Positions 21,654 to 55,968 are shown, numbered from the stretch's first letter. The stretch: DNA of 64,000 nt from a virus (IMGVR_UViG_3300031251_000002:32001-96000), one strand, 5' to 3'. Program-made: numbers and translations. The notes: generated by a model not told the origin, from the letters alone.

Positions 21654-22484
21654 ATGACCCTGATTGAGATGCTGGAGCATCGGGCTGCAAGCTTCTATCA
21701 GGGCGTCCTAGAGGGCAAGGCTCTGGCCACCCACGCGGCCCCGTCCAATACTGCCCGTCAGGCCCTAGCCCTAAAGGCCCGTAATTTCCTTCGTACGGAC
21801 CCTTATGGGCGCAAGGCCAGCCCGTCCTACCACGCAGACATGGAGGCGCAGTTCAAGGCCCTCCAGACGGCCTTCAGAGCCAAATTACGGGGTCTGTACC
21901 GGAACTGGGAGAAGACTGGGAACATTGACGCCTTCAAAGCCCAGTCCGAGAAGGTTTTCAAGGACCACTACACCAAGGTCTTCCAGCTAGGCATGACCTC
22001 TGGCGACCTGAGCCGTCACACCAATCCCGGTGCCCGCCGAGTCCGAGCGGCGCTGGTGACGCCCGCTGATCGGGCTTGGATCGCCTCCGCCGCCAAGGAG
22101 GAACTCGGCTTCTGGAAGAAGTTCCTGTCGGATCTGCGGTTCGGTCGGGTCGGCGGGGATCCATTCAAGCGGATTGACATGTACGTGAAGTCCGCTGAGG
22201 CTCCGTATCACGCGGGCAAGGTTGTAGCTCTGCCCCACCAGACAGGCATTCGCTGGCGCTACAGCCCAATCGTGGAGAAGCACTGCGCGGGTTGCCTGTA
22301 CTTGGCCAGCCAAGGGCCGTACACGAAAGAGTCCCTTCCCTGCACCCCACGGGACGGGTCAACCCTCTGCCGATTCAACTGCAAATGCGAACTTGATTAC
22401 TTCGACATCACAGCCGAGGAGTATGTTAAGCTCTCCCGAAAGAGTAAGACATGGCTACTGAGCAGAGTCAAAAGTCGCAGGTAA
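21654..22484 (+). CDS. MuF / SPP1 gp7-like minor head protein
   Basis: C-terminal HCAGC....GPY....LP..P.DG.T.C.FNCKC.L. Confidence 0.7.
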   Translation: MTLIEMLEHRAASFYQGVLEGKALATHAAPSNTARQALALKARNFLRTDPYGRKASPSYHADMEAQFKALQTAFRAKLRGLYRNWEKTGNIDAFKAQSEKVFKDHYTKVFQLGMTSGDLSRHTNPGARRVRAALVTPADRAWIASAAKEELGFWKKFLSDLRFGRVGGDPFKRIDMYVKSAEAPYHAGKVVALPHQTGIRWRYSPIVEKHCAGCLYLASQGPYTKESLPCTPRDGSTLCRFNCKCELDYFDITAEEYVKLSRKSKTWLLSRVKSRR

Positions 22485-22864: not shown

Positions 22865-22932
22865 TCTTTTTGGTTTTACTGGCGATCATGGCTGTAGTTC
22901 TCTTCTTTACAGAAGCAGACGATGAACCTTGA
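22861..22932 (+). CDS. 23-aa hydrophobic peptide
   Basis: MIFLVLLAIMAVVLFFTEADDEP*, ATGA-coupled to upstream gene. Confidence 0.45.
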   Translation: MIFLVLLAIMAVVLFFTEADDEP

Positions 22933-22957
22933 CACAGTAAACACCGGTCTCTAAAAT
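22929..22957 (+). promoter_or_regulatory. Sigma70-type promoter
   Basis: TTGACA-17 nt-TAAAAT. Confidence 0.75.
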
Positions 22958-22976
22958 CGCATCAATCTCGGGTACG

Positions 22977-23028
22977 GGGCGGGAAGTGGGGCTTAGTCCT
23001 TTCGACCACTTCCCGCCCTTTTCTTTTT
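22977..23028 (+). terminator. Intrinsic terminator
   Basis: 13-bp stem GGGCGGGAAGTGG/CCACTTCCCGCCC then TTTTCTTTTT. Confidence 0.85.
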
Positions 23029-23070
23029 CTCCTAAAAACATAAGCTGTCGTCTCTGTTAACCCCTTAGAA

Positions 23071-23244: not shown

Positions 23245-26200
23245 ATGAGTAGAGAGAACCTTCGCGGTGTCATCAGCGGTCTGCCGAAGACCCTCATTGA
23301 CACGCCTGTTACCCCAGACGCCCAACCCCTGATGGAAGTCAAACCATCTGACTTCAAGCCTTGCGCTCGCTGCAACGGTACGGGTAAGGTAGACGGCAAG
23401 CAGTGTGTTCTCTGTCAGGCCAAGGGGACGATGCTCCACCGGCCTGTTCCCGAGTCGAAGTCCATTCTCTCTGAGGTCTGTCAGGCATGCGGTGGTCACG
23501 GCGCACAGGGGCTGAAGACCTGTGTAATCTGTCAGGGCGAGCCATTCATGGTTAACTTCACGAACGAAGCTGTGGATCCTCTCTGCTCATGTCGGCATCC
23601 ATTTAGTAAGCATACGAGCCGTCCCGGTGATATCGCTGGTCACGCGGGCGCATGTACTAGCAATCCAACCATCCCACCGAAGCCCGGATTTGGGTGTCGC
23701 TGTCAATACTTTTCCTTGAAGCCGAACGAGCCTGATCCTTGGACTATCGAGAAACAGTTCCATGAAGCAGTTCTTCCTCATAAATATGATGTTAGCTGCC
23801 AGTGCGGTTGGTCGTGTGTTGGAAAGCACAGCGTTCTTAGTGATGCGACCGAGTGTGCCTATCATCATGAGGGATCAGGATCAGGCCACAACTGTGAGAT
23901 TGAAGATAAGGGCACGGGTCTGACCTTCAACTCTATGGGCAGCATCACTGATTACTACGAGTCCGCCGAACCTCCCGATACGCAGCCTGAGTTGACCTGT
24001 AAGAAGTGCGATAAGCGCTTTTCTCCCGATGACGCGGAGTGGAAAGCAGCCCAGCGCGGCGACCCCTTCGTTTGTGCCGAGTGCAAGGCCAAGAAGAAGA
24101 CGAACGAAGCTGTGAATGAGATGGCTGATGCTATCAAGGCCAAGATCAAGGCGCAGCTTCAGGGCAAATACCCTGATGATGTTCTCAAGAAGGCTTTAGC
24201 TAGGACAGAGCGCTGGCAAAAGGCCGCATACGGCAGCAAGGACTGGTCAAGTCATCAGGATGAGTCAGGCTACGACAACCTCGTTGGGACTGTAGAACTG
24301 TACGCTGATGAGATTACCAAAGAGCAGGCTGGCAAGACGGGTCCAACTGCTAACCAGAGCCAGTTTGGTATCTGGTCGCCTAACGTTAGAAACCGCAAGG
24401 GTGAAGCTGAGGGTACGAGCTACAAGGGCTTCTGGCTTGACCAAGACAGTTCAAATCCGCACACAGGCTATCCCGGTGGGATGTGGTACGCGCTGACCAA
24501 GAGTGGCGTACCTGTTACAGACGGTGCTCCGTCCATCGAAGCTCTCAAGAAAGAGATCGACAAGATTGTGGCTCATGGCGCGGATGCGAACCGTTGCCCG
24601 TGTTGCGAGACTGTCGAGAAAGTCCTGTACGGCGTGAAGAACGGCGACGAGGACTGGCAGGAGCAGCTTCTTCTCAGTGGTCCCAACGCGACAGACGCGA
24701 ACATCGAGAAGGTCAAACAGCTAGCGGCCAAGGACGGCTTTGGGAAGTTTCGCGTTGCTTCGATTGACCTGAGCAAGCCGCCCGACTTTACCAAGGCTCT
24801 GCGGAAGAACGAGGCTGATGACCATTGTCGTGTCCGTGGGACCGACGGTGAGACACGGATCTGCGGCGAGAGGAAGCCCTGTCCCCTTCACGACGACGAA
24901 GGCCGGAAGGGCGAAGCCAACTCCTATCGCCACCCCAAGACCGGCCAGTTCGACGCCAAGGAAGGCGACTGCTGGGCGTGTGAGGGATCAGGGACGAAGG
25001 AAGACGGACAGGGCCGCTGCGCGATGTGCGATGGTGGCAAGAAGCTCCCCAACCAAGGTAACAACCTGAAGCGAAACGAGGGGCGGGACTACTCAGCAAA
25101 GGTTACTGGCCCGAGCGCAGTTGCTTTGAAGCGTCTTGCGACAGAAGCCGCGAAGCACCAACTCACATCCGAGCAGCAGGGTGCGGTGAACATGGTTCAG
25201 CGGGATACAGTTTCTATCCTCGCACGGCCCAAGCTCGCTCTAGAGATTAAGATGGTGTTGGATTTCGCTATCCTGCATCAGCCATTGAAGCAGGGCGAAT
25301 CTGACGACCGTTGTGGTTACTGCGGTCACACGCCGGTTGCTCACGATCCGAAGATGAGTCTCGGTTCTGGCCTCTGCACGGGTGGCCTTGGCTGCGACTG
25401 CCGTCAGTTCCAAAAGGGCAGTGCGTGGGTCGAAGCGACCGGTACGGCCATGGTCGCGGGCGCGGAGCCACAGGCTGATGTGGCCTTCAAGGGCGACGAT
25501 CTAAAGGGCGATAGCGATTACGGAGACCGCGACGAGGATTGGTCGATTACCAACACGACCGATCTTCCGCGAAACGAGGGCACAGTGGACGATCTACCAG
25601 TTAACATCAAGCGCATGTGGAAGAACGATGAGTTCCATTGTCCAATCTGTGACCTGAGCATTGGCAAGAACCTGCTGGGTGACATACCTCACGCCCTAGC
25701 GGCTCAGCACCTGTCACAAGCCCACCCCGGCGACAAGGCGTCCATCCTAGCGGGCAACTTTGAGCCAAAGATGGGATCTGCGGCCTCGTACATCAAAATG
25801 GAAGCTGAGGACAAGAAGATCGTTTTCAAGTGTCAGGAGTGCGGCAAGAAGCTCCCCGGTACGGCCCGCAAATGCTCCAAGTGCGGCTCTGAGGACATTG
25901 ATCTAGCTGAAGCCTACATGGACAACACCAAATGCGAGACTTGTGACCACGCCTCACGGTTGCACAACGAAGGCGAAGGCCGCTGCTTTGCCGAAGTGAA
26001 CGATGAGGGCGGTGGGACTGATTGCCGATGCAAGAAGTTCGTTCGCGGTAAGAACGAGGCTGGAGACTACTGCCCGAAGTGCGACCACGCGATGAAGGAT
26101 CATTCGGCCAATGGTTGCGAAGTCTGTGCGGATCACGGGGAGAAGTGCAACGTAGTTGATGAGGCCAACACTTGGTTGATGGCCCGCTCCTCGTCCCAGC

Positions 26201-27807
26201 CGAAGCTGGCCGAGCCGACCTTTACCCACGCGGACGCTATCGAGGCGTGGCAGAACTTCCGCATGCCCGCTGATATTGAGCGCCGCAAGCAGCTACAGAA
26301 GTTCTGGCTCCAGCAGCATCAGGACTTCTCCGTGGGCGGTAGTCAGTTCAACGACCCGGATGCTGAGGCACATCGTTACTACTACAAGCTGTTACTTCAG
26401 ACGTTGGGCGTCAAGGTAGCTGAAGAGGTTACACGTTGGACTGAAACTACGTCCGGCTCGGTGCATAGACCCGGCATTGACACCTATACTGGTTATAGCG
26501 AAATGAACGAAGCCATGCAGTGCTTCTGCGGCCACTCCAAGACGGCGCATGAGGATGGCGTAGGCAAGTGTAGCAGCAGCGGGAACACCTCTGCGGGTGC
26601 GTGTCTCTGCAAGAGCTACAGGAATCGTCCTGTCAAGGAAGCCTTCCCCAACGACGGCCCCGGTGAGGACATGGGCACAGACATGCCTGAGATGGGCGAC
26701 GACGAGTGGACACGCAACGTGATTACTGGCGACGGCACCGGCTCGACAGTCGGCGTCGAGGATAAGAATGAGGCCGAAGAGCTTCGATGGAAGGCTGGAG
26801 ATATCGTGATAATTCGTTCGCATAACAGCGAACCGGGTCACGGTCTTTCCTATTCGGCTGCTGCCATCGTTGCTTTCGAGGATGGCGTTGCTGGCGGATG
26901 GGATGTGTACGATGGAGCGAGCTTGGATGCGCCGACTTTGGAAACGAGCTTCTACGGCTTCAGCGTACTCCGTGTAAGGCGGGGGACGGCGGGGAAGAAT
27001 GAGGCCGAAGAGGTTACTTCTCCTCTCAACACCTATCTCGCTGTTCACAGCAAGAAGGGCAAGATCCAACTCAAGGCTGCGACGACCTATCAAGCTCAGC
27101 AGCTAGCTGCCAAGCAGATGGGTGTCCCTAAGCCGTTTGAGATTTCGATCCACCTGATTGGCAAAGCAGACGGTACACCCGTTCCCGTCCATGTCGAAAG
27201 CACTAATACTACGCCCTATGTTAAGCCGTTACAGGCTTTCTCCTATCGCGTAGGTCAGAAGTACGACTCCGCATACAACTCAAAGCTGGCACAGGCAGTC
27301 GGTCGGATCGTGGTTCCGGCCAGCCATATCTTTGAACCTGATAGCGTGGCGGATGCGAACGACTGCGATCTCTACACGACGATGATCGCCTTGCGGCTGA
27401 AGGAGCTTGGTTACTTACTGCTAAGCCCACAGGACAAGGCGGAGTGGGAGACTCTTTCAACGAAATTCATGCAGGACGTTCAGGCATACGCTGGACACTA
27501 CGATAAGCATGAGTCAATCGCGCCAGACGATGGGACGCGCATCTCGTCTGACTGGGGCGACATCTGGGGCGACCCGACCAAGAGCGGGATTACTCCTCGC
27601 CATGAGACGGCTGAGGCGGTCCTCGCGTCGATCTCCCTGCTCCAGTCTGCTTTTGTAGAGGGTGTTGAGACACTAACCATGTGCCACAACTGCGGTCATG
27701 CGGAGCATTTCCACCTCCTTGGAGCAGCCCTTGGCGCACAAGGGTTTGCTGATAATTCAACAGCTTGTTACGTAGATGGCTGCACTTGCGGGATGTTTAC
27801 AGCATGA
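23245..27807 (+). CDS. 1520-aa multidomain polyprotein of zinc-finger and other micro-domains (putative internal head protein)
   Basis: DnaJ-type CxxCxGxG, C2H2, zinc ribbons and repeated CxCxHxxxH...CxC modules separated by NEA/GEA/NEG/GES-type linkers. Confidence 0.85.
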   Translation: MSRENLRGVISGLPKTLIDTPVTPDAQPLMEVKPSDFKPCARCNGTGKVDGKQCVLCQAKGTMLHRPVPESKSILSEVCQACGGHGAQGLKTCVICQGEPFMVNFTNEAVDPLCSCRHPFSKHTSRPGDIAGHAGACTSNPTIPPKPGFGCRCQYFSLKPNEPDPWTIEKQFHEAVLPHKYDVSCQCGWSCVGKHSVLSDATECAYHHEGSGSGHNCEIEDKGTGLTFNSMGSITDYYESAEPPDTQPELTCKKCDKRFSPDDAEWKAAQRGDPFVCAECKAKKKTNEAVNEMADAIKAKIKAQLQGKYPDDVLKKALARTERWQKAAYGSKDWSSHQDESGYDNLVGTVELYADEITKEQAGKTGPTANQSQFGIWSPNVRNRKGEAEGTSYKGFWLDQDSSNPHTGYPGGMWYALTKSGVPVTDGAPSIEALKKEIDKIVAHGADANRCPCCETVEKVLYGVKNGDEDWQEQLLLSGPNATDANIEKVKQLAAKDGFGKFRVASIDLSKPPDFTKALRKNEADDHCRVRGTDGETRICGERKPCPLHDDEGRKGEANSYRHPKTGQFDAKEGDCWACEGSGTKEDGQGRCAMCDGGKKLPNQGNNLKRNEGRDYSAKVTGPSAVALKRLATEAAKHQLTSEQQGAVNMVQRDTVSILARPKLALEIKMVLDFAILHQPLKQGESDDRCGYCGHTPVAHDPKMSLGSGLCTGGLGCDCRQFQKGSAWVEATGTAMVAGAEPQADVAFKGDDLKGDSDYGDRDEDWSITNTTDLPRNEGTVDDLPVNIKRMWKNDEFHCPICDLSIGKNLLGDIPHALAAQHLSQAHPGDKASILAGNFEPKMGSAASYIKMEAEDKKIVFKCQECGKKLPGTARKCSKCGSEDIDLAEAYMDNTKCETCDHASRLHNEGEGRCFAEVNDEGGGTDCRCKKFVRGKNEAGDYCPKCDHAMKDHSANGCEVCADHGEKCNVVDEANTWLMARSSSQPKLAEPTFTHADAIEAWQNFRMPADIERRKQLQKFWLQQHQDFSVGGSQFNDPDAEAHRYYYKLLLQTLGVKVAEEVTRWTETTSGSVHRPGIDTYTGYSEMNEAMQCFCGHSKTAHEDGVGKCSSSGNTSAGACLCKSYRNRPVKEAFPNDGPGEDMGTDMPEMGDDEWTRNVITGDGTGSTVGVEDKNEAEELRWKAGDIVIIRSHNSEPGHGLSYSAAAIVAFEDGVAGGWDVYDGASLDAPTLETSFYGFSVLRVRRGTAGKNEAEEVTSPLNTYLAVHSKKGKIQLKAATTYQAQQLAAKQMGVPKPFEISIHLIGKADGTPVPVHVESTNTTPYVKPLQAFSYRVGQKYDSAYNSKLAQAVGRIVVPASHIFEPDSVADANDCDLYTTMIALRLKELGYLLLSPQDKAEWETLSTKFMQDVQAYAGHYDKHESIAPDDGTRISSDWGDIWGDPTKSGITPRHETAEAVLASISLLQSAFVEGVETLTMCHNCGHAEHFHLLGAALGAQGFADNSTACYVDGCTCGMFTA

Positions 27808-29930
27808 AGCTGGTGGAAGCATTTTTCGTAGGGACCAAGCCCGATGGATCCAAGGAAGTTTTCCAAGGCTCCCGGAACCCGACGACAGAAACGCATCCCC
27901 GGTTTAAGTCCATCGCTGGCCCGTTCAGCGAAGAAGAGGCTAAGAAAATGGCTGGCGACGAAAAGAAAGAAGCCCTCAAGCGAGAACTGATGGGAGAGCT
28001 TTCAGATGGTTACGTATCCTGTACCAAGTGTGGTGTGGTTCCCGAGAAAAGCTGTCCGCACAGTGCGCCCTTTAAGAGCGTGACAAAAAAGAACGAGTCC
28101 TCTGGCGTAGTGATCACCGCGCCCGGTGCTGGTGACACTCCTGAGACTCTCCTGAAGGCGATCCCGCGCACGATGGATGCTTCTGCGTTCATCAGCCACA
28201 TCGGTGATCTCGTCGTTGCTGGCAAGGGTGCTGCGCCGACTGACATGAAGTTGACTGGCGAGCCAATTACTCCGAGCGACGTTACCATGATGGCTCAGTG
28301 CAAGATTGGCGAAGCTGAGAATGTCTTTGACAAACATGCACTGAAGATTGCTAAAGACACCCTGAAGATTGCTAAAGACACCCTGAAGATGCATCCAGCG
28401 GTGGTAGGCGTCATGGGCGGCACCACGCACGAAGGTGCCCATCAGACTATCAAGCGCATCACTGGCAAAGACCAGTCCTGCACCCAAGACGGCTGTCCTT
28501 ACAAGCAGACCGGGAAGACCGAATCCCGCGAACTGCGCGAAGGCTCCAGCATCTGCAACTGTGGGGACTCTGAGAACGACCACTACAAGGATCCGCCGTC
28601 TTCTTGCAGCCGCTGTGCTTGCGACTCGTTTGAGTCCAACAGCCTCCCGGATAAGGCGAAGGCTCCTGCTGCAAAGGACAAACCAGTGGACAAGAAGGAA
28701 TCCCTCAAGCGCGAGCTTTTGGGTGAGGATAACTTTGTAACATGCGTTGGGTGCGGCAAAGAAACTCTGTCGCGTGACGCTGCTAATCTTAATGACCGTG
28801 GAAAGTGGGCGAGTCCGCCAGAGGGAAAGCCACATTGCCGGTCTTGCGATATGTATGGGCCACCTGACAATGGTGGTAAGTCGTCTCCCGGTGTCGCTGG
28901 TTATACGAGCCGGGAAGCCGGGTCGGGACCGGCTAAAAAGAATGAGTCGGATGCCTACGACCGCGATTTCACCTGCAAGATGTGCGGTAAGACTGACGAC
29001 GGCCCGGAGTTCGTAGTTGCTGGCAAGCACCCGGTTTGCAAGGCATGCAAAGAGAAGAAGGATCCAGACAAGCCGATTAAGCTGCGCGGGGAATCCACAA
29101 GTAACGATAAAAACTGCCAAGCGTGTGGTGCTTCCGGTGCGTCCCCAAGGGATAGAGGCAACGGTCGAGTTCTCAACCTCTGCTCAACCTGCACTTCTAA
29201 GAAGGCCGAAGGCGCGGTCTTTGCATCCAATGCTAGCCTACATAAGAAGTACCCCGGTCCTGCGGCTGACGCTCAGTCTGACAAAGCTCGAAAGTCCGTA
29301 CCGAACACAGTTTGCAATTTCTGCACTAACCCGGTGACGCCACCGGCAACCGTTTGTGACACTTGCTATGACAAGTTCAACAAGAAGAAGGAATCTAAGG
29401 AGAAACCTATGAAGACCAAGCCAGTTGGCGAGCAGTTTCATGCTCTGGCCAACGCTGCCATCAAGATGATGGTTAGCATTCAGGAGTCCCCGCGAGCGGG
29501 GCGGGTGACCCCGCTACTGGCGCGGTTGGACAAGGTAGCGAACAAGGCAGCGGATGCTGTCGCCGCGAAGATGATGGGGGAGAACCAAGGTTACGAGTTC
29601 CCCGCGCTCTTCAAGGAGTTGAAGGAGATCCACGCCAAGCTCAGGACCGCAATGGGCGAAGGCTGGCACATGTATCCGGCTCTCGGGCTGGGCAATGACT
29701 TCAACATGGGTGGCGATGGTCGCGAGATGTCGCCAGAGCTTTCTGGTGTTGATCCGGTCGAGGGCATGGTTGCTGCGGCAGTCCCGCTCGACGCTGGTGC
29801 CAACAAGATGGAGAACGTTAACAAGTACGTTGACAGTCTCCTGAAGGAAGACGATGACGAGAAGTGCGATACCTGTGGTGGTGTTGACAAGCACGACAGG
29901 AACAAGCACGACGCGGATTTCAAAGGCTAA
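27804..29930 (+). CDS. Second Cys-rich multidomain polyprotein (putative internal head protein)
   Basis: ATGA-coupled start MKLVEA; linkers KKEALKRELMGE, KKNES (x2), KKESLKRELLGE, LRGES, KKES; many CxxC pairs. Confidence 0.85.
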   Translation: MKLVEAFFVGTKPDGSKEVFQGSRNPTTETHPRFKSIAGPFSEEEAKKMAGDEKKEALKRELMGELSDGYVSCTKCGVVPEKSCPHSAPFKSVTKKNESSGVVITAPGAGDTPETLLKAIPRTMDASAFISHIGDLVVAGKGAAPTDMKLTGEPITPSDVTMMAQCKIGEAENVFDKHALKIAKDTLKIAKDTLKMHPAVVGVMGGTTHEGAHQTIKRITGKDQSCTQDGCPYKQTGKTESRELREGSSICNCGDSENDHYKDPPSSCSRCACDSFESNSLPDKAKAPAAKDKPVDKKESLKRELLGEDNFVTCVGCGKETLSRDAANLNDRGKWASPPEGKPHCRSCDMYGPPDNGGKSSPGVAGYTSREAGSGPAKKNESDAYDRDFTCKMCGKTDDGPEFVVAGKHPVCKACKEKKDPDKPIKLRGESTSNDKNCQACGASGASPRDRGNGRVLNLCSTCTSKKAEGAVFASNASLHKKYPGPAADAQSDKARKSVPNTVCNFCTNPVTPPATVCDTCYDKFNKKKESKEKPMKTKPVGEQFHALANAAIKMMVSIQESPRAGRVTPLLARLDKVANKAADAVAAKMMGENQGYEFPALFKELKEIHAKLRTAMGEGWHMYPALGLGNDFNMGGDGREMSPELSGVDPVEGMVAAAVPLDAGANKMENVNKYVDSLLKEDDDEKCDTCGGVDKHDRNKHDADFKG
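28341..28390 (+). repeat. Perfect 21-bp tandem duplication (LKIAKDT x2)
   Basis: CTGAAGATTGCTAAAGACACC twice plus partial third copy. Confidence 0.95.
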
Positions 29931-32901: not shown

Positions 32902-33282
32902 ATGGCAACAGTAGACAAGACGATTTCAATCGTAGGTACGCTTCAGTCAGCGGATCTGGTTACTCGGATCAAGCTCGATGACATCATGATGGCGACAGGT
33001 CGCCTGACGAAGCTGTTTGAGTTTGAGGCCACGCTGGCGGCAGCGACGGTCAACCAAGCGGTTAGCCTTCAGGACGCCACGGTGGCGAATTTCGTGTTCG
33101 CTCGCGTAGACGTTGTTGACGGCGGCGATTGTACGATCACTGTTACCCCACAGGGCGGTTCGGCCACAGCCATCGTTTGCAACGGTGGGGAAATCTGGCT
33201 GAACAAGACTGCGATCACAGCGATTACTGTCAGCAGCACATCTGGCGCGAACGTGAAGATCATTGGCGGAGGAATCGCTTAG
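32902..33282 (+). CDS. Probable virion structural protein
   Basis: Beta-rich Thr/Val/Ala composition. Confidence 0.55.
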   Translation: MATVDKTISIVGTLQSADLVTRIKLDDIMMATGRLTKLFEFEATLAAATVNQAVSLQDATVANFVFARVDVVDGGDCTITVTPQGGSATAIVCNGGEIWLNKTAITAITVSSTSGANVKIIGGGIA

Positions 33283-33284
33283 CC

Positions 33285-33749
33285 ATGCCGGGTTATAACA
33301 GGTATAAGCGCAGTGGAGACTGCGTGTTGTGTGGAACATGGCGACAGTCGTTGCATCGGGACCATATCGTTCCTAAGTTCAAAGGCGGTTCCGATGAGCC
33401 AAGCAACTGGCAGTTTATCTGTGCGAATTGTCATGAGGACAAGACGCGCCTTGACTTGAAGGGGAGAAAGCGACCGCCCCGTTCCAAGGAAACCAAGGAA
33501 AAAATTCGTGCTGCTGTCTCTAAACCGCGCAACCTGTCACCGGAACAGCGCAAGAGTATTTCTGAGCGAATGTCAAAACTTCACACCGGTAATCAGTACA
33601 ACGTCGGGAAGAAAAATGGGCCAATGATGCTTTCGCCGGAAGAGCGAGCTAGGCGGGCTGAACATTTACGTAACGTGGCTAAGACGATCAATATAGGCCG
33701 TAAGCGCCCCGATGTGGCAGAACGGAATCGACAGCGTGTTACCCGTTAG
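33285..33749 (+). CDS. HNH homing endonuclease with NUMOD3-like DNA-binding tail
   Basis: CVLCG...HRDHIVPKFKGGSDEPSNWQFICANCHEDKT; SKETKEKI, SPEQRKSIS repeats. Confidence 0.9.
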   Translation: MPGYNRYKRSGDCVLCGTWRQSLHRDHIVPKFKGGSDEPSNWQFICANCHEDKTRLDLKGRKRPPRSKETKEKIRAAVSKPRNLSPEQRKSISERMSKLHTGNQYNVGKKNGPMMLSPEERARRAEHLRNVAKTINIGRKRPDVAERNRQRVTR

Positions 33750-34497
33750 TACGTTTGTTGACACCCTGTTGTTGGAAGGGGTGTTCGATCAAGGGATTTT
33801 GAAAGCCATCTTCATGGCTGGTGGTGCTGGGTCTGGCAAGTCGGCTGTCGCGGCTGACTTGTTTGACATCCCAGACTCTAACGATGTCCGGTATGTCAGC
33901 TTTAGCTCTGGCGGGCTGAAGCTGGTCAACCCGGACAGAGCGTTCGTTCACGGTCTGATCAAGGCGGGGTACGATCCCAAGAAGTTAGCTGACATCCCGG
34001 ACGAGGAGTTTGATCGAGTCATCGGTGGCGACCACCCCGGTCCCGGCACGATTCGGGCGATTGCCAAGCAGCTTGCGGTCAAGGTCTATGACATGAACAA
34101 GGATGGGCGTCTTGGCATGCTGATCGACGGGACCGGCGGCAACCTTCCGAAGATTCAGGGCCAGAAAGAAGACCTTGAGAGCATCGGTTACGACACGTAC
34201 ATGGTGTTTGTTAACACCCGCCTTGAGGTCGCCTTGGCCCGGAACAAGAAACGCTCGCGGGTAGTCAAGGACGAGGTTGTTATCAGTACGTGGCATGAGG
34301 TGCAAGCGAACCTAGAAACTTATCGTTCAATGTTTGGCAGTCACTTCACGATCATTGAAAATTCGGCTGATCAGCGTAACATCACAGCAGCGGCAAACAG
34401 CGCTGTTCGTGGGTTCATGTCGCAGCCGGTTCAGAATCCAATAGGGCAAGAATGGATACAGAACATGACGAAGATTCGCCAGCGGGCGGAGAAATAG
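33712..34497 (+). CDS. P-loop kinase (zeta-toxin/AAA_33-like); start uncertain (33712 or 33736)
   Basis: KAIFMAGGAGSGKS, LVNPD, LIDGTG, GYDTYMVFVNT.LEVALARN..R.R. Confidence 0.85.
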   Translation: MWQNGIDSVLPVSTFVDTLLLEGVFDQGILKAIFMAGGAGSGKSAVAADLFDIPDSNDVRYVSFSSGGLKLVNPDRAFVHGLIKAGYDPKKLADIPDEEFDRVIGGDHPGPGTIRAIAKQLAVKVYDMNKDGRLGMLIDGTGGNLPKIQGQKEDLESIGYDTYMVFVNTRLEVALARNKKRSRVVKDEVVISTWHEVQANLETYRSMFGSHFTIIENSADQRNITAAANSAVRGFMSQPVQNPIGQEWIQNMTKIRQRAEK

Positions 34498-35184: not shown

Positions 35185-35589
35185 ATGCCTCCTATTGATA
35201 GCTCTGATATCAAGAAGGATGCGCTGCACAAAGAGCTTGGCGTCCCAACGGATAAGAAGATCCCGGACGCCGAGCTTCAGGCAGCGAAGAACTCTTCTGA
35301 TCCGAAAGAGCGCAAGCGAGCCACCTTTGCCCTCAATGCAAAGAAGTGGAACCACGAATCGGTCACCCGGTTCGTTGATTCACTGGCAGAGGGCGGTTTA
35401 TCAGCGCGAGAGCTAGACATGCAGTCTGGTGACATCACCACTTCCATGTACGGCGGTTCGGCGTCTGAGTGGGCTGCGATGCCAATGACAACGCCTTGTG
35501 ATCGACCGACCTGTGATCATCCCAAGGGGAATCACAAGACTATGAATCTGCACCCCTGCTCCCGGTGTTCGTGCCCCGCTTACATATGA
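35185..35589 (+). CDS. Small multidomain putative head protein
   Basis: ALHKELGVP.DKKIP...RA.FA.NAKKW domain, NHES/LAEG linkers, C-terminal C.H...H...C..C.C module. Confidence 0.7.
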   Translation: MPPIDSSDIKKDALHKELGVPTDKKIPDAELQAAKNSSDPKERKRATFALNAKKWNHESVTRFVDSLAEGGLSARELDMQSGDITTSMYGGSASEWAAMPMTTPCDRPTCDHPKGNHKTMNLHPCSRCSCPAYI

Positions 35590-36011: not shown

Positions 36012-36062
36012 TTCAAGGGGTTTTGGGGAAACTCACGCCTCTCTTGGATTTTTAAGGTGGCT

Positions 36063-36836
36063 ATGTCTAATTTCGACGGCTTCTACGAACACATCCTCGT
36101 TCTGCCGGAACAGGAGTGGAGAAACCAGCTTCGTGAGAACGATGCGCTGGTAGGCCGTCTGCGCGATCACGGTGCCGCTGTCACACCTGACGGTGTTCTT
36201 GTAGTCGAGGCTGAAAGACTTTACCGGGTCACTCTCCTACTACGCGAACACAACCTTACGTGGCGCTTCGATCCTGCCTTTGCCGTCGAGACTGCCTTGA
36301 CCGAGAGCGACCCGGTTACCTTGATGAACAGGATGCTTTACGATCCAGAAGAACCCTATAGCTGGGAAGATCGAAAGCCTCTTAAGTGGTATCCAGAAGG
36401 CGAAGAGATCGAAGACGCCATGGACGACTACGATAAGTCCCTCCCTAACCACGCGGATCAGACGCTTCAGATGCCGCAGGATGGCGTGAAGGCGTCTAAC
36501 GTCGCAGCCAAGGCATTGGATCATGGCTGGCAGGATCCCTCTCTCGCTGCGGTCGGTGAGGGCAAGGAAGGCGCGAAGAAAATCAAGAACGAGGCCGGGA
36601 CCGAATCCACTGATCCGGACTTCAACCCGTGCCCTGCGTACATGGAAGGCTTCTGCCGCGTAGACGGACGAGTATGCCTGTACAACAAAGAAACCTTTGA
36701 GGACTGTCCGAAGTTCAACACTGCTCTGATCATTACCAAAGGCAACATGGCCATCCCTCCGGGTTCGGAGGACGATGAAGATTACGGCGGCGGCGCTTTT
36801 GGCGACAAAGACGATCCGCTAGCGGGTGAGAACTAG
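36063..36836 (+). CDS. Acidic hypothetical protein, probably head-associated
   Basis: Linker-like LTES, VGEG, IKNEA; small Cys cluster. Confidence 0.6.
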   Translation: MSNFDGFYEHILVLPEQEWRNQLRENDALVGRLRDHGAAVTPDGVLVVEAERLYRVTLLLREHNLTWRFDPAFAVETALTESDPVTLMNRMLYDPEEPYSWEDRKPLKWYPEGEEIEDAMDDYDKSLPNHADQTLQMPQDGVKASNVAAKALDHGWQDPSLAAVGEGKEGAKKIKNEAGTESTDPDFNPCPAYMEGFCRVDGRVCLYNKETFEDCPKFNTALIITKGNMAIPPGSEDDEDYGGGAFGDKDDPLAGEN

Positions 36837-38857: not shown

Positions 38858-39487
38858 TTGAACTTCAAGACAGCACTGGCGGTTCTGGTGGTGGGTCTGG
38901 CCTCTGCTTACGCGGAGGCCCAGACTGCCACGCCTACACCGTCTAAGACGCCAACGCCGACCAATACATTCACGGCGACGAACACTTTCACGCCGTCGAA
39001 TACACCGACCGTTACGGCTCGTAGGCCCATCTTCCCGTACACGCCTTCGATCACCCCGGTTCTCTCCGCTACGCCTACGCCAACTGTTACGAATACGGCA
39101 ACAGTGACGAATACACCAACCAAGACATTTACTCCGACTTTGACTTGGACGGCTCGTCCTCAGTTCCCGGCGCTGACCTTTACGAACACGCCGACAGCTT
39201 CCAAGACGCCAACGGTTACATTGACTGTCACACCGACAGCAACGTTTACGAAGACGTATACCCCGCTCCCGGTGTATACGCCAACCGTTCGTCAGCCACT
39301 CCCATCGTGGACCCCAAGCAGCACGGCTACCAACACCCGGACGTTCACGAACACACGGACGAGTACACCGACATTTACGCCGACCACGACCGCGACCCGG
39401 ACCGGGACGCCAACGAAGCGTCCGTCCCCGACGATCACTAAGACGGCAACCCCGACGAATACACCAACGAAGACCCCAACACCATAG
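38858..39487 (+). CDS. Secreted mucin-like Thr/Pro protein
   Basis: Signal peptide ending AEA-Q; remainder almost entirely TPT repeats. Confidence 0.7.
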
Positions 39488-39921
39488 TGTCAACTCTAAG
39501 TGTTCTACTCAATGCTGTCCTCCGAGCCTCTGCGACCCCTGCTCAGGAGCCGCCCATTTCGCTCCTCACCGAAGTGCGGCGGCTCCCATCTTTCTGGAAT
39601 CTGGCAGAGACTGAGGATGATGTACCAGCCTTTCGAGTTGTCTATCGTCTCCCGAGCGATCTCATGGGGTTCGGGTGCATGGATCTCTATCGGGGCAACC
39701 GGTATGAAGGCACTGTAGAAGCCTTCTCAATTTTGAAACTACAACGTGAATATGGATTCAATCAGCTTGAGGCCGAACGGTTTTGTGACTATGCGTGGAA
39801 CTTTCGCTGGGTGCTGCTTAACAGCAGCAACCGCCGGTACACGCAGGAGCTTTCGCTTCACCGGATCCTCGATGCTGTTGACCTCGGAACTAATGATCTC
39901 GTCATCGGAGAAGAAGGATAA
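39487..39921 (+). CDS. Hypothetical protein
   Basis: 144-aa ORF filling the gap before the protease. Confidence 0.55.
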   Translation: MSTLSVLLNAVLRASATPAQEPPISLLTEVRRLPSFWNLAETEDDVPAFRVVYRLPSDLMGFGCMDLYRGNRYEGTVEAFSILKLQREYGFNQLEAERFCDYAWNFRWVLLNSSNRRYTQELSLHRILDAVDLGTNDLVIGEEG

Positions 39922-39924
39922 TCT

Positions 39925-41889
39925 ATGAGCGTCCTCCGCGATACCGCGATCTTCTCTGGTTTCAAACTTACCGAAGGCGTTACTAACGCTACGACCGGGC
40001 GTAAGCCATTGGTTGTTGAAGGCGTTTTTCAACGTGCAGATGTTCTCAACGCTAATCACCGGGTTTACCCGAAGGCTCTTTGGGAGAAGGTTCTAACGAA
40101 CTCTTCGCTCAAGGAGGCTCTTAACAACCGCCGCATGTTCGGTGAAGTCGATCACCCAGCGGATTGGCGTATGGCGCTTGCTCGTACATCACATGTCATC
40201 ACTGACCTGAAGATGGACGAGAGTGGCAACATCATCGGTAAGGCAGAAATCCTCCCGACCCCGACTGGCCTTGTTCTAGAAGCGATTCTACGGGCTGGCT
40301 GTGAGGTTGGCATTTCTTCGCGTGGAACCGGCTCAACATCCTCGACCAACGAAGGTCATGAGGTTGTTGGTGAAGACTACCAGCTAGAGACCTTTGATTT
40401 CGTAGCAACACCCTCGACACCGGGGGCGTATCCGAAAATGGTTATGGAGACTATGGAACGCGCCCAAGCGATGGAAGCGCGGATCATGGATAGTTTATTT
40501 AAGTCTGTTACCCCTGCGAAGAAGGAGGAGGTTAATGAGATGAGTCTTGATGGCTACCGTGCCTTGGAGCGCGAAGCCTCAGAACTGATCCGGATCAAGG
40601 TCAAAGGCATTGATGCTGCGACCCGTACTCTCGTTCTCAATAAGATCGAAGAGACCATGGGCAAGGTGATCAAGGCTGGTGAGGCGGATAAGACCGTCGC
40701 CGTCCTGTCCGAGTCAATGCTGAAGTCGCTTGAGAAGAAGCGTTCCAAGCTATCGCCGGTTACGGAAGAGGATGTTCTACCACAGGAAACCAACGTTCCT
40801 GATTACTCTAGTGCGGCTGCGGACAAGCTAGAGGATGACGGTGACGATGATGCTGATGACAAGGAAGCCGACGACGAGAAGTCGTCCAAAGAGGAAAATC
40901 GCGCAATGAAAAAGTTCAATCGTCTCTTTACTGAAGACGATGACATGCCCGAGTTCCTTAAGAAGAAGGCTGACAAGGCTGACGGCAAAGACAGCGATGA
41001 CAAGGACGAGGCTGAAGAGGTGAGCAGCGCGGACTCCAATTCTCCGATGGAGGATGAGGAGACGGCGGGTGAAGTTACTTCTGACATCAACGCCGAGATC
41101 CCGAACGTTTCCGCTGAGTCGATTGACCGCCGCGTGTCCGCATTCCTTAGGGAAGAGATGCCAGACAACTTCAAGAAGGATGACGACAAGGACAGCGATG
41201 ACGACGACGACAAGGACGAAGACGCTGCTTCTGAGTATTCACCTGAGAAGCCTGTCAACTCATCGGATGACATCGTGACCGCTACCGAGTCGGATATCCG
41301 TGGCTTGATGAAGGTTCTTTCCAAGAACCCGGCCAAGCTGGAGTCCTTCATCCGTGGAACCATCAAGATGGTTAACGCGGAGCGCAAGGCTCGTCGCGTA
41401 TCGGAAGCCAAGGCCATCAAGTTTGGCAAGGTTGCCGAGGCCGTGATCAAACGCCACAAGAAGGCGTCCAAGGTCAACGAGGCCGCTGGTCCGCTAGCTG
41501 CCAAGTACAAGTTCGTTTGCGAGGCTGTGGCCGAGCTACAGCGTCGTTATTTCTCTCTCAAGAACAAGTTCCTCATCTCAGAGGCCCTGATCGAAGCGGG
41601 CGTTCCGAGCAAGGAGCGGGCGGAATGGGTTCAGACTCTCTCGACCCTGACCACACGCGAGCAGCTTGTCCGTGGTATTCAGAAGGTAAAAGCGCTCTAC
41701 ACCGAGGAGGACGAGAAGCCATCCGACGACAAGAAGGATGACGAGCAGTCTGACGAGAAGAGCGAGTCTACAAAACAGCCGAAACCGGGCGCAGAGAATC
41801 TCTCTGAGTCCAAAGACAAGCACGACATCTTCATTACCGAAGGTGCCGCAATTTTTGCAAACGCCCGCTCAAAGCGTGGCTTGCGCTAA
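39925..41889 (+). CDS. T4 gp21-like prohead protease fused to an acidic/coiled-coil scaffold region
   Basis: VEGVFQRADV.N.NHRVYP, FGEVDHP, SHVI..L, GKAEILPTP.G, VGISSRGTGS, FDFVATPSTPGAY; Asp/Glu/Lys-rich C-terminal two thirds. Confidence 0.93.
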   Translation: MSVLRDTAIFSGFKLTEGVTNATTGRKPLVVEGVFQRADVLNANHRVYPKALWEKVLTNSSLKEALNNRRMFGEVDHPADWRMALARTSHVITDLKMDESGNIIGKAEILPTPTGLVLEAILRAGCEVGISSRGTGSTSSTNEGHEVVGEDYQLETFDFVATPSTPGAYPKMVMETMERAQAMEARIMDSLFKSVTPAKKEEVNEMSLDGYRALEREASELIRIKVKGIDAATRTLVLNKIEETMGKVIKAGEADKTVAVLSESMLKSLEKKRSKLSPVTEEDVLPQETNVPDYSSAAADKLEDDGDDDADDKEADDEKSSKEENRAMKKFNRLFTEDDDMPEFLKKKADKADGKDSDDKDEAEEVSSADSNSPMEDEETAGEVTSDINAEIPNVSAESIDRRVSAFLREEMPDNFKKDDDKDSDDDDDKDEDAASEYSPEKPVNSSDDIVTATESDIRGLMKVLSKNPAKLESFIRGTIKMVNAERKARRVSEAKAIKFGKVAEAVIKRHKKASKVNEAAGPLAAKYKFVCEAVAELQRRYFSLKNKFLISEALIEAGVPSKERAEWVQTLSTLTTREQLVRGIQKVKALYTEEDEKPSDDKKDDEQSDEKSESTKQPKPGAENLSESKDKHDIFITEGAAIFANARSKRGLR

Positions 41890-41904: not shown

Positions 41905-43314
41905 ATGGCCGACCTTTTTGAATCAGTCCTAAGCAAAGGTAAGCACCTTGCCGAGAACGACTGGCGGGCTTACTTTGCTGCACAGGACGGCACCCTAGCT
42001 CTAGATGAGTCTAGCCGTGCGTTGACTGCCTATCTCCTAGAGGTAGAAAAGCAGTACATCAAGAATCTTGATGAGGACACGCGAATTGCCTCAATCGGAT
42101 CTTTCGAGAAGTACGTCTTCCCGATCATCCGTGCGGTATTCCCGAACCTCGTCGCAACCGAGCTAGTCTCGGTTCAGCCCATGCAGGGACCAACCTCGTT
42201 GGTGTTCTACATGGACTTCAAGGCTGGATCCAAGAAGGGTTCAGTCAACCTCGGTGACACGCTTATCTCGTCCCGTACGGGTCAGCAGGCGTCCACCAGC
42301 TACTCAGGCGAGCTAGTTGACGCTGAGCAGGCTTACACGGGCGACGGCGCGACGGTTACCTTCACGGGTGCCAACCTGTCGTACTTCCCGCTTCGTCCTC
42401 TGTCGATCACGGTCAGCACCCTCGTTGGCGCTGTCCTGAAGACGGCTGTTGACGATGGCAATGGCAACCTCGTTGGTGCTGGTTACACGACCGGCGCTGG
42501 CGAAAACACCATCAACTACTCCACTGGCGCAATCAACCTCAAGTTCTCGGTTGCTCCGGATTCCAACGCGATCACCGTTGCGTACAACTACGCTTCGGAA
42601 GCTTCACTACAGGTTCCGCAGATTGATGTCAGCATCACCTCGGTCCCGGTGACGGCTCGTCCGCGTAAGCTCCGTGCCCGTTGGTCAGTTGAAGCCGCTG
42701 CCCAGCTTCGCGCCGTTCACGGTGCGGACGTTGAGACAGAAGTAACAACGGCCATGGCCGAAGAGATCCGTTTCGACATCGACCGCGAGATCATCAACGA
42801 TCTCACCACGGTTGCTGCCGCTCCGGACAACTCGACCCACGATTTCTGGTTCTACACCGCCGCGCCGACCGGCATCTCGTTCTTTGAACACAAGATGACG
42901 ATCCTCGATACGTTCATCGCTCACTCCAACTACATCTTCAGCCAGACGCGCCGTGCAACTGGTAACTGGATCGTAGCTGGCGTCAACGTTTGCTCGATCA
43001 TCGAGTCGCTCCCAGTGTTCAAGGCGATCTCGGTAACCGGTTCGGGCGTTGTGTACATGGGCGACCTCATGGGCCGTTGGAGGGTCTACAAGGATCCTTA
43101 CATGGCTACCGACTCGTTCCTCGTTGGTCACCGTGGTGCGTCGTACATGGACACGGGCTACATCTACGCTCCGTGGATCCCGCTGTACACGACTCCTACC
43201 GTGTACCTCGATGACTTTGTTGGCCGTAAGGGTCTCCTGACTGAGTACGCGAAGAAGATCGTCAACGGTCTCTTCTACACTCAGGGCCACATCGTTCACG
43301 GTTCACACCCGTAA
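41905..43314 (+). CDS. Major capsid protein (T4 gp23-like)
   Basis: FPIIRAVFPNL.A.ELVSVQPM.GP.SLVFY, VTARPRKLRARWS.EAA..L.A.HG.D.E, EI..DIDREII..L, GNWIV, GYIYAPWIPL. Confidence 0.96.
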   Translation: MADLFESVLSKGKHLAENDWRAYFAAQDGTLALDESSRALTAYLLEVEKQYIKNLDEDTRIASIGSFEKYVFPIIRAVFPNLVATELVSVQPMQGPTSLVFYMDFKAGSKKGSVNLGDTLISSRTGQQASTSYSGELVDAEQAYTGDGATVTFTGANLSYFPLRPLSITVSTLVGAVLKTAVDDGNGNLVGAGYTTGAGENTINYSTGAINLKFSVAPDSNAITVAYNYASEASLQVPQIDVSITSVPVTARPRKLRARWSVEAAAQLRAVHGADVETEVTTAMAEEIRFDIDREIINDLTTVAAAPDNSTHDFWFYTAAPTGISFFEHKMTILDTFIAHSNYIFSQTRRATGNWIVAGVNVCSIIESLPVFKAISVTGSGVVYMGDLMGRWRVYKDPYMATDSFLVGHRGASYMDTGYIYAPWIPLYTTPTVYLDDFVGRKGLLTEYAKKIVNGLFYTQGHIVHGSHP

Positions 43315-55236: not shown

Positions 55237-55968
55237 ATGAGTAAAGCGGGCAAGCTAACACAAGAAGCCATTGGGTTTCACAACGCCAATATCGCAGCCG
55301 CTCAGACGCGGTTGGTTCAGGGCAGCAGCTACAAAGACGTATCCACGATCTGTGTTGTGCCAACGCGGGGGATGATCTCCGCCAAGGTGGTCCAATACTG
55401 GATGGGGATGATGAGTCCGATGAACCAGAAGTTCATGCGGATTTTCATGAGCGGGCTAGAGGTGGGCGAGGCGTACGAACAGGCAGTGGATCAGATCCTC
55501 GCGCACCCAGACCTGTCGAAGTGGAAGTACATCCTAACGCTTGAGGAGGACAACTGTCCGCCTCCGGACGGGCTGCTTAAGCTAATCGAGTCCATTGAGA
55601 TGCACAAGCTCGATGCGGTTGGTGGCCTTTACTGGACAAAAGGCGAGGGCGGTCAGCCGATGATCTACGGCAACCCCGGTGAGATGCCAAGAAACTTCAT
55701 CCCGCAGGTTCCGATTCAGAACGCGGTTCAGCCGTGTAACGGTCTTGGAATGGGGTTCACGCTCTTCCGGATGGACATGTTCAAGTCCGGCAAGATCGCT
55801 CGTCCATTCTTCAAGACCGTGCAGGAGTACAAGCCCTACGTCGGCGGTTCGACGTTCACTCAGGACTTGTTCTTTTTCAACAAGGCGTGTGATCAAGGGT
55901 TCAAGTTCGCTTCAGACAATCGAGTTCTCGTTGGGCACTATGATGCCCCTAATGATTTCATGTGGTGA
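55237..55968 (+). CDS. GT-A fold (GT2-like) glycosyltransferase
   Basis: VVPTRG, YILTLEEDN (DxD-like), VGGLYW, GMGFTLF, QDLFF...G.K...D.RV.VGHYD. Confidence 0.8.
   Translation: MSKAGKLTQEAIGFHNANIAAAQTRLVQGSSYKDVSTICVVPTRGMISAKVVQYWMGMMSPMNQKFMRIFMSGLEVGEAYEQAVDQILAHPDLSKWKYILTLEEDNCPPPDGLLKLIESIEMHKLDAVGGLYWTKGEGGQPMIYGNPGEMPRNFIPQVPIQNAVQPCNGLGMGFTLFRMDMFKSGKIARPFFKTVQEYKPYVGGSTFTQDLFFFNKACDQGFKFASDNRVLVGHYDAPNDFMW

Follow-up and report, generated by a model that had tools for sequence, protein, structure and literature searches.

The two adjacent open reading frames (ORFs) analysed here, ORF1 (1520 amino acids, aa) and ORF2 (708 aa), lie in the metagenomic genome of an uncultured, T4-like phage from IMG/VR (IMGVR_UViG_3300031251_000002), and the comparisons and structure models described below support the view that both encode arrays of independently folding small domains, in which linkers made of Glu and a small residue mark the domain borders. 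The window, that is, the whole stretch of 64,000 nucleotides that was analysed, corresponds to bases 32001-96000 of this 166,450-bp record, which is rated complete by CheckV; positions are counted from its first letter. The phage carries a Gp23-type major capsid protein and a Peptidase_S77 prohead protease, and cutting of the arrays by this head protease is plausible from the sequences. On the whole we lean towards a process in which ORF1 and ORF2 are cut after the linker Glu by the S77 protease inside the capsid and the pieces are kept there as cargo. Both ORFs are present as given in a preliminary description of the window, which had been made from the sequence alone, and ORF2 is listed in the database as a 708-aa protein. 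Its ATG overlaps the stop codon of ORF1 as ATGA, which suggests translational coupling.

The linker joining the modules reads basic-(N/G/K/T)-E^(A/S/G), in which the caret marks the proposed cut. Its fixed features are the Glu and the small residue after it (Ala, Ser or Gly), and Lys or Arg usually stands 2-3 residues before the Glu. The preliminary description had given the consensus as basic-(N/G/K)-E-(A/G/S), and it turned out that such a motif is real and far beyond chance in both ORFs. For the pattern [KR].?[NGKT]E[AGS], ORF1 has 14 matches and ORF2 has 11, against shuffle means of 1.55 and 1.11, and these counts were reached in none of 2000 shuffles. NE[AGS] is found 10 times in ORF1 (shuffle mean 0.90, maximum 5; 0 of 2000 shuffles reach 10), and in an unbiased test NEA is the most over-represented tripeptide of ORF1 (7 observed, 0.34 expected; Poisson 8e-8). 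Compared with the other proteins, the density of the pattern is 9-15 per 1000 aa in ORF1 and ORF2 and 0.56 in the remaining 48,348 aa, a difference of 16-27 times.

Glu occupies P1, the residue before the proposed cut, in all 22 proposed linkers and also at the edges of the homology blocks, and it is mostly followed by Ala, Ser or Gly. A minority of borders have Leu, Met or Val at P3 (two residues before this Glu), such as L-M-E31, L-A-E889^A, V-D-E973^A, and L-G-E or M-G-E in the spacers of ORF2. These spacers are an extended form of 12 residues, KKE[AS]LKREL[LM]GE, with 2 copies in ORF2 (KKEALKRELMGE and KKESLKRELLGE), and the L-G-E of the second copy matches the T4-type Leu-x-Glu motif. One match in ORF1, LHNEGEG at 909/911, does not count as a linker, being internal to a Cys module. 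Because the linker codons differ synonymously, selection appears to act on the peptide and not on the DNA. Three other roles for the motif were considered and rejected: a Shine-Dalgarno sequence or internal start is ruled out by the synonymous codon variation and by the lack of a start codon at a fixed distance, a helix N-cap by the residues past N-E-A, which are mostly non-helical starts of Cys modules, and a DNA-level recombination signal finds no nucleotide-level invariance.

To locate the linkers relative to the domains, we turn to homologs of single modules. A HMMER search with aa 321-1520 of ORF1 gave 157 proteins, nearly all of which match one of two modules, A and B. Module A has 88 homologs above the local BLAST cut-off, 49 of them free-standing (<=90 aa), and module B has 46 homologs by local BLAST, 25 of them free-standing; the free-standing homologs are mostly 60-80 aa long. 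Projected on ORF1, the median ends of the free-standing module A homologs are 455 and 522, with flanking Glu at 455 and 523, and those of module B are 1177 and 1249, with flanking Glu at 1176 and 1253. For the zinc-ribbon module, the free-standing homolog P0132 (46 aa) ends with ...EDIDLA, one residue short of Glu889. AlphaFold was run with separate module alignments, and one long MAFFT alignment (A1), which stacked unrelated module families, was discarded. The predicted confidence (pLDDT) is 96-98 across module A (about 457-519) and module B (about 1180-1249) and 45-60 in the linkers, so that for these two split pieces the linkers fall outside the predicted folded cores. Since three independent measures, the homolog termini, the edges of shuffled blocks (see below) and the AlphaFold confidence edges, coincide with the linkers, the proposal that small independent domains are divided at the Glu linkers is supported.

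The free-standing homologs occur in runs of tiny phage genes, and one of the contigs is from a T4-like phage. Module A also forms the end of a methylase-SNF2 helicase protein of 2592 aa and is part of a 1057-aa protein encoded close to a polyvalent protein with LPD1. This ties the modules to proteins whose delivery together with the DNA has been proposed (PMC5512222).

ORF1 and ORF2 have no close relatives in IMG/VR or among GenBank phages, and the closest capsid proteins among GenBank phages share only 37-39% identity with that of this phage. No Cys-rich polyprotein lies near the protease of its distant protease relatives (L002-L006). The sole related phage found is in ENA sample ERZ1426817, with P0003 (1414 aa) as the homolog of ORF1 and P0005 (559 aa) as that of ORF2, and the two genes have an identical 4-base overlap. 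The linker pattern is enriched here as well (P0003, 12 against 2.1 in shuffles, 0 of 2000; P0005, 8 against 1.3, 1 of 2000). Modules shared by ORF1 and P0003 have 43-80% identity and stand in a different order, for example 936-973 of ORF1 at 57-94 of P0003, 17-108 at 91-177, 557-610 at 203-255 and 455-617 at 682-841. Most of the homology-block starts (6 of 9) are on or within 3 residues of a linker Glu, and 5 are exactly on E[AGS]; such positions make up 2.4% of ORF1, which gives about 1e-6 for five exact starts by chance (binomial estimate). The start of one ORF1 module (1318-1356) recurs in the ORF2 homolog of the other phage (P0005 62-98, after LLRE^STC), indicating that modules move between both genes. 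Besides, ORF2 and P0005 have in common only the C-terminal part of about 180 aa (70% identity) and the linkers, with the rest unrelated, so the linker is conserved and the cargo is replaced. The 12-residue spacer has 3 copies in P0005, between unrelated modules.

When the chains are divided at those Glu positions that are supported, ORF1 comes to about 22 modules and ORF2 to 9, about 31 together, with lengths of 34-178 aa. The modules include zinc fingers and ribbons, an SH3-like barrel, a small alpha/beta domain and helical pieces. Dozens of unrelated micro-domains, mostly zinc-binding, had been announced; not all of them are unrelated, as one micro-domain (C-x-C-x-H...H...C...C-x-C) occurs 5 times in ORF1, and at least 3 Cys are present in about 60% of the modules while the others have none or one. 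A BLAST search for paralogs of parts of ORF1 and ORF2, within the ORFs and elsewhere in the genome, gave nothing significant. Pfam finds weak zinc-finger matches only on ORF1 and ORF2, and the sole resemblance in a PDB sequence search is the DnaJ zinc finger with the first module (ORF1 aa 38-99, E 0.004). For module B there are only weak SH3 fold matches and for module A no clear fold match; both fall among viral hypothetical clusters in ESM Atlas. A DNA-condensing role, also raised in the preliminary description, is unlikely because ORF1 is acidic (Asp+Glu 14.2%, Lys+Arg 11.2%), with most modules neutral or acidic.

The candidate processing enzyme is the protein at 39925, in which a gp21-like protease had been recognized and is now confirmed by Pfam (Peptidase_S77, PF03420, 2e-23) and PHROG (head maturation protease, 2e-46). 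Its residues H77, S132 and D158 align with the triad of T4 gp21 and are invariant in 30 homologs. The C-terminal region of about 450 aa is strongly acidic and probably helical, homologs of 500-670 aa have the same build, and there is no separate scaffold gene between the protease and the capsid gene. Enzymes of the S77 family act inside proheads, and their substrates must therefore be there, which is an indirect argument for packaging of ORF1 and ORF2. The T4 consensus is Leu/Ile-x-Glu, usually before Ala. The proteases of T4, phiKZ (gp175), 201phi2-1 and SPN3US (gp245) all cut C-terminal to Glu (PMC5694885, PMC9026906, PMC10052503), and the rule that the gp21 family cuts after Glu applies to every characterised S77-family enzyme (PMC5694885, PMC9026906). 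P3 is lineage-specific in this family, with Ser/Ala-x-Glu in phiKZ and Ala-x-Glu in SPN3US, and propeptides have several sites (PMC5694885, PMC9026906, PMC10052503). The protease-scaffold protein has three linker-type sites of its own, KLTE17^G, KAGE253^A and KVNE520^A, which are 3 of the 27 such sites outside ORF1 and ORF2, whereas its share of the residues would predict about 0.36 (estimate).

From these features we infer cleavage and capsid packaging as follows. ORF1 and ORF2 would be loaded into the prohead as single chains, ORF1 through its conserved 31-residue leader ending in Leu-Met-Glu and ORF2 through its conserved C-terminal domain. The leader (MSRENLRGVISGLPKT...AQPLME) is retained in P0003 as MSENLRQVLAGLPKT...AQPLME and is a candidate capsid-targeting propeptide; compared with no alignment made, it has no visible similarity to the T4 targeting peptide. 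That this leader and the ORF2 C-terminal domain are conserved around hypervariable cargo is a further part of the indirect argument for packaging. The Peptidase_S77 protease would then cut after each linker Glu inside the prohead, and about 30 freed proteins of 4-13 kDa would stay in the capsid, enter the host with the DNA and act like the internal proteins of T4, serving as ready-made factors for host takeover or against defences. In this way a single targeting signal could carry the whole set of small proteins, and swapping entire modules at the linkers would let related phages reshuffle the set.

Several observations weigh against this process. P3 is Lys or Arg in about 15 of the 22 linkers (read from the linker sequences), which fits none of the known S77 motifs (Leu/Ile; Ser/Ala/Gly; Ala), there being no characterised consensus with a basic P3, and at some orthologous linkers of P0003 the residue after the cut, P1', is not small but Asp, Glu or Val. 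The preliminary description had also seen similar E-(A/S/G) sites in the scaffold part of the protease and in the capsid N-terminus; the former has them, but the capsid N-terminus contains no basic-x-Glu-small motif, and the T4 gp23 maturation site LTE65^A aligns with LLE46^VE of the capsid protein. The KVNEA site of the scaffold part is missing in P0157, an ortholog with 58% identity, and L-T-E17 near the N-terminus of the protease, nearly invariant among homologs, has Leu at P3; its near-invariance may point to an autoprocessing site. Given LLE46 in the capsid protein, the near-invariant Leu-x-Glu17 and the loss of KVNEA, the native motif of the protease is probably Leu-x-Glu. The genomic setting is likewise unfavourable, as the operon lies outside the head-gene cluster, amid accessory genes and behind its own sigma-70-like promoter, with neighbours including a metallophosphoesterase, a zeta-toxin-like kinase and an HNH-like gene. 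The operon also lacks a MuF or LPD marker. A MuF-like head gene had been placed just upstream (21654-22484), a claim that fails because Phage_Mu_F (PF04233) has no match at E<=10 in the whole genome; this gene has only a sub-threshold VG15 match and a match to PHROG 24776, of unknown function. Finally, fold and feature searches with modules A and B point to no function, as they return only viral hypothetical clusters and an SH3-like resemblance of a generic kind.

These points could also be read in other ways. The chains may stay uncut as beads on a string, for instance as a multivalent zinc-finger hub for host targets or nucleic acid, with Glu-small as a preferred hinge. In favour of this, the linker P3 matches neither the known S77 motifs nor the Leu-x-Glu sites of the phage itself, and some polyvalent proteins are delivered unprocessed (PMC5512222). 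We nevertheless hold uncut chains to be unlikely, since a passive hinge as a rule varies and contains much Gly, Ser or Pro, whereas here the Glu is kept at the compared borders in both genes and both phages even when the modules are replaced; what is more, modules that equal whole free-standing proteins do not need the chain for function.

The polyproteins might instead be cut in the cytoplasm by a non-head protease of host or phage, giving ordinary intracellular proteins that are not packaged. Their own sigma-70-like promoter, the accessory-gene setting, the distant portal and the basic P3, unlike known S77 specificity, would suit such an origin. It seems quite improbable to us all the same, because Glu at P1 with Ala, Ser or Gly at P1' characterizes the family of the enzyme that the phage encodes, and no second protease was seen in the genes examined, a set smaller than the whole proteome. 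Nor is a Glu-specific processing protease that works in the cytoplasm known to us from either bacteria or phages. Least probable is a prohead core or scaffold filler like T4 gp22, gp67 and gp68, whose pieces leave the capsid before DNA entry: T4-type cores are degraded at many Glu sites, and with the protease fused to its scaffold extra core proteins are conceivable, but the pieces here are folded domains of 4-13 kDa and not short peptides, and widespread free-standing phage families with rapid exchange between relatives fit effectors and not a scaffold. Cutting inside the capsid, with the pieces retained as cargo, is the reading we favour.

Table 1. Features of the polyprotein operon and of the related genes in the window (caret, proposed cut)
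Feature	Position	Strand	Description
Sigma-70-like promoter and hairpin	22929..23030	+	TTGACA-17-TAAAAT (11/12), in the 380-bp gap before ORF1
ORF1	23245..27807	+	polyprotein, 1520 aa, about 22 modules, 64 Cys
N-terminal leader of ORF1	23245..23337	+	aa 1-31, ends Leu-Met-Glu; candidate capsid-targeting propeptide
Module A	24610..24813	+	aa 456-523, beta-beta-alpha-beta domain between Glu455 and RKNE523^A
Module D	25579..25803	+	aa 779-853, C-x2-C...H-x4-H finger after PRNE778^G; homologs P0122 (63 aa) and P0138
Zinc-ribbon module	25804..25911	+	aa 854-889, end DLAE889^A; weak Pfam Zn_Ribbon_1 match
Module B	26773..27003	+	aa 1177-1253, SH3-like beta-barrel between DKNE1176^A and GKNE1253^A
Module aa 1319-1423	27199..27513	+	start HVE1318^STNTTPYVKP
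ORF2	27804..29930	+	polyprotein, 708 aa, about 9 modules; ATG at 27804
Extended ORF2 spacer KKEALKRELMGE	27963..27998	+	holds a K-K-E^A site and an M-G-E site
Second extended spacer KKESLKRELLGE	28692..28727	+	holds K-K-E^S and L-G-E
C-terminal domain of ORF2	29394..29927	+	178 aa, probably helical, directly after KKKE^S; candidate anchor/targeting part
Possible further substrate	36057..36836	+	259 aa, one KIKNE^AG linker, then a Cys-rich micro-domain
Prohead protease	39925..41889	+	Peptidase_S77 (aa 1-200) and acidic scaffold-like C-terminal part; proposed processing enzyme
Major capsid protein, Gp23-type	41905..43314	+	Pfam Gp23 8e-68

The features are summarized in Table 1. The T4-type portal is about 38 kb upstream of ORF1. 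In the whole genome 9 promoter-like sites score at least 10/12, all on the + strand, and a promoter identical to that of ORF1 precedes the gene at 55237; the T4 late promoter TATAAATA is absent from the window. About 20 nt past the ORF1 promoter and 215 nt before ORF1 there is a GC-rich hairpin of 13 bp with a T-run. It could terminate the upstream genes, serve as a leader or attenuator, or belong to a small RNA about 65 nt long. Two small proteins, at 35185-35589 of the window and at 29461-29859 of the genome (window -2540..-2142), end in the C-x-C-x-H...H...C...C-x-C zinc micro-domain. Together with the linker-bearing protein at 36057-36836, they indicate that the system of modules and linkers extends past ORF1 and ORF2.

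Between the polyprotein operon and the head genes, an HNH-like endonuclease ORF (33129-33749; HRDHIVPKFKGG...CANCH) runs into the beginning of the next gene, which encodes a zeta-toxin/AAA-like kinase (33712-34497; Pfam Zeta_toxin 1e-6). Upstream of the protease, with only a 144-aa gene (39487-39921) between them, lies a 209-aa protein (38858-39487) with a signal-like N-terminal segment, which consists almost entirely of T-P-T, T-N-T and T-F-T repeats. It has a single match, to PHROG 15511 (unknown function), and part of the 1373-aa protein at 6591-10712 matches this group too.

Other phage proteins with module A, from AT-rich phages, are arrays too (P0072, P0085, P0073, P0065, P0081, P0079; L014:4814-13174; L015:1578-3851). 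Their linker is of another kind, [F/Y/M/L]-x-[K/D/E/S]-G-G, e.g. YAKGG and FEKGG, which occurs 5-10 times in the 3 proteins tested and less than once in shuffles. P0085 (1057 aa) comes directly after a 1725-aa protein with 10 G-G linkers, which is itself downstream of a giant LPD1 protein. A literature search found no phage paper on the [FY]AKGG linker. Judging from these sequences, the G-G linker may be a second type of cleavable polyprotein linker.

A wider proposal is that tailed phages have a general, so far undescribed route for delivering whole sets of small proteins for host takeover or against defences, by which tiny genes that are expressed early in other phages are fused into packaged polyproteins, cut at a lineage-specific linker, with modules moving freely to and from free-standing genes. 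The cut site would be basic-x-Glu^small here and [Phe/Tyr]-x-x-Gly-Gly in other giants with module A. We regard this generalization as tentative and rather doubtful at present.

If cutting and packaging are right for ORF1 and ORF2, one targeting signal and one protease would load about 30 pre-made small proteins per capsid, re-sorted by module swaps, and the idea of T4 internal proteins, so far three or four in number, would be widened to a combinatorial arsenal. Families of tiny phage proteins now called only "hypothetical" would gain a function as injected cargo. In practice, the linkers would be a simple sequence rule for spotting such cargo in metagenomes, and the arrays would offer a natural scaffold for packaging many foreign small proteins in T4-like capsids.

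No description of such Glu-linked arrays of mini-domains was found in a literature search. The closest working analogy is the internal-protein system of T4, which here would be fused into arrays. The internal proteins IPI, IPII, IPIII and Alt carry a targeting sequence that is removed by the gp21 protease, and they are ejected with the DNA. As in T4, there are a Gp23-type capsid and a gp21-type protease, the units of cargo have only 4-13 kDa and begin with a small residue directly after a Glu, a hypervariable body follows a conserved processing signal, and ORF1 has a conserved N-terminal leader ending in Leu-x-Glu. Unlike T4, where each cargo has one gene and its own 10-residue targeting peptide, about 31 units are held in two chains with internal linkers; P3 is mostly basic and not Leu/Ile, the units are mostly Cys-rich and not basic, and ORF1 and ORF2 have no sequence similarity to the T4 internal proteins.

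The closest described class is that of polyvalent proteins, giant multi-domain phage proteins with a mosaic, fast-changing domain order, for which transport with the DNA and processing into separate parts have been proposed (PMC5512222). Similarly, about 31 domains are found per array pair, their order is shuffled in P0003 and P0005, and module A is also present in such giants. However, the domains of polyvalent proteins number 2-15 and are mostly enzymatic, the markers are MuF, LPD or zincin-peptidase domains, and autoproteolysis is proposed (PMC5512222). In ORF1 and ORF2 the roughly 31 modules are tiny and non-enzymatic, marker domains and a peptidase of their own are absent, and the Glu linker points to the head protease. 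By Pfam, none of the hallmark domains (MuF, LPD, zincin-like peptidase, ArdC-N) is on ORF1 or ORF2, and the only link is indirect, through module A.

The inner-body and ejection proteins of phiKZ, 201phi2-1 and SPN3US, which are internal to the capsid, are similar in having Glu sites, an S77-family protease, often several sites and a lineage-specific motif. They differ in that processing is mainly the removal of an N-terminal propeptide from large proteins at Ser/Ala/Gly-x-Glu or Ala-x-Glu, and they have no homology to ORF1 and ORF2 and no arrays of interchangeable mini-domains. RNA-virus polyproteins, such as those with picornavirus 3C sites, also hold independent products in one chain with short, repeated, protease-specific junctions, but the virus realm, the protease fold and the purpose are different, and cutting here is proposed to occur inside the assembled capsid shell. 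As far as the sequences tell, ORF1 and ORF2 are notable for the number and small size of the modules, the zinc-finger content, the basic P3 and the exact match of modules to free-standing proteins.

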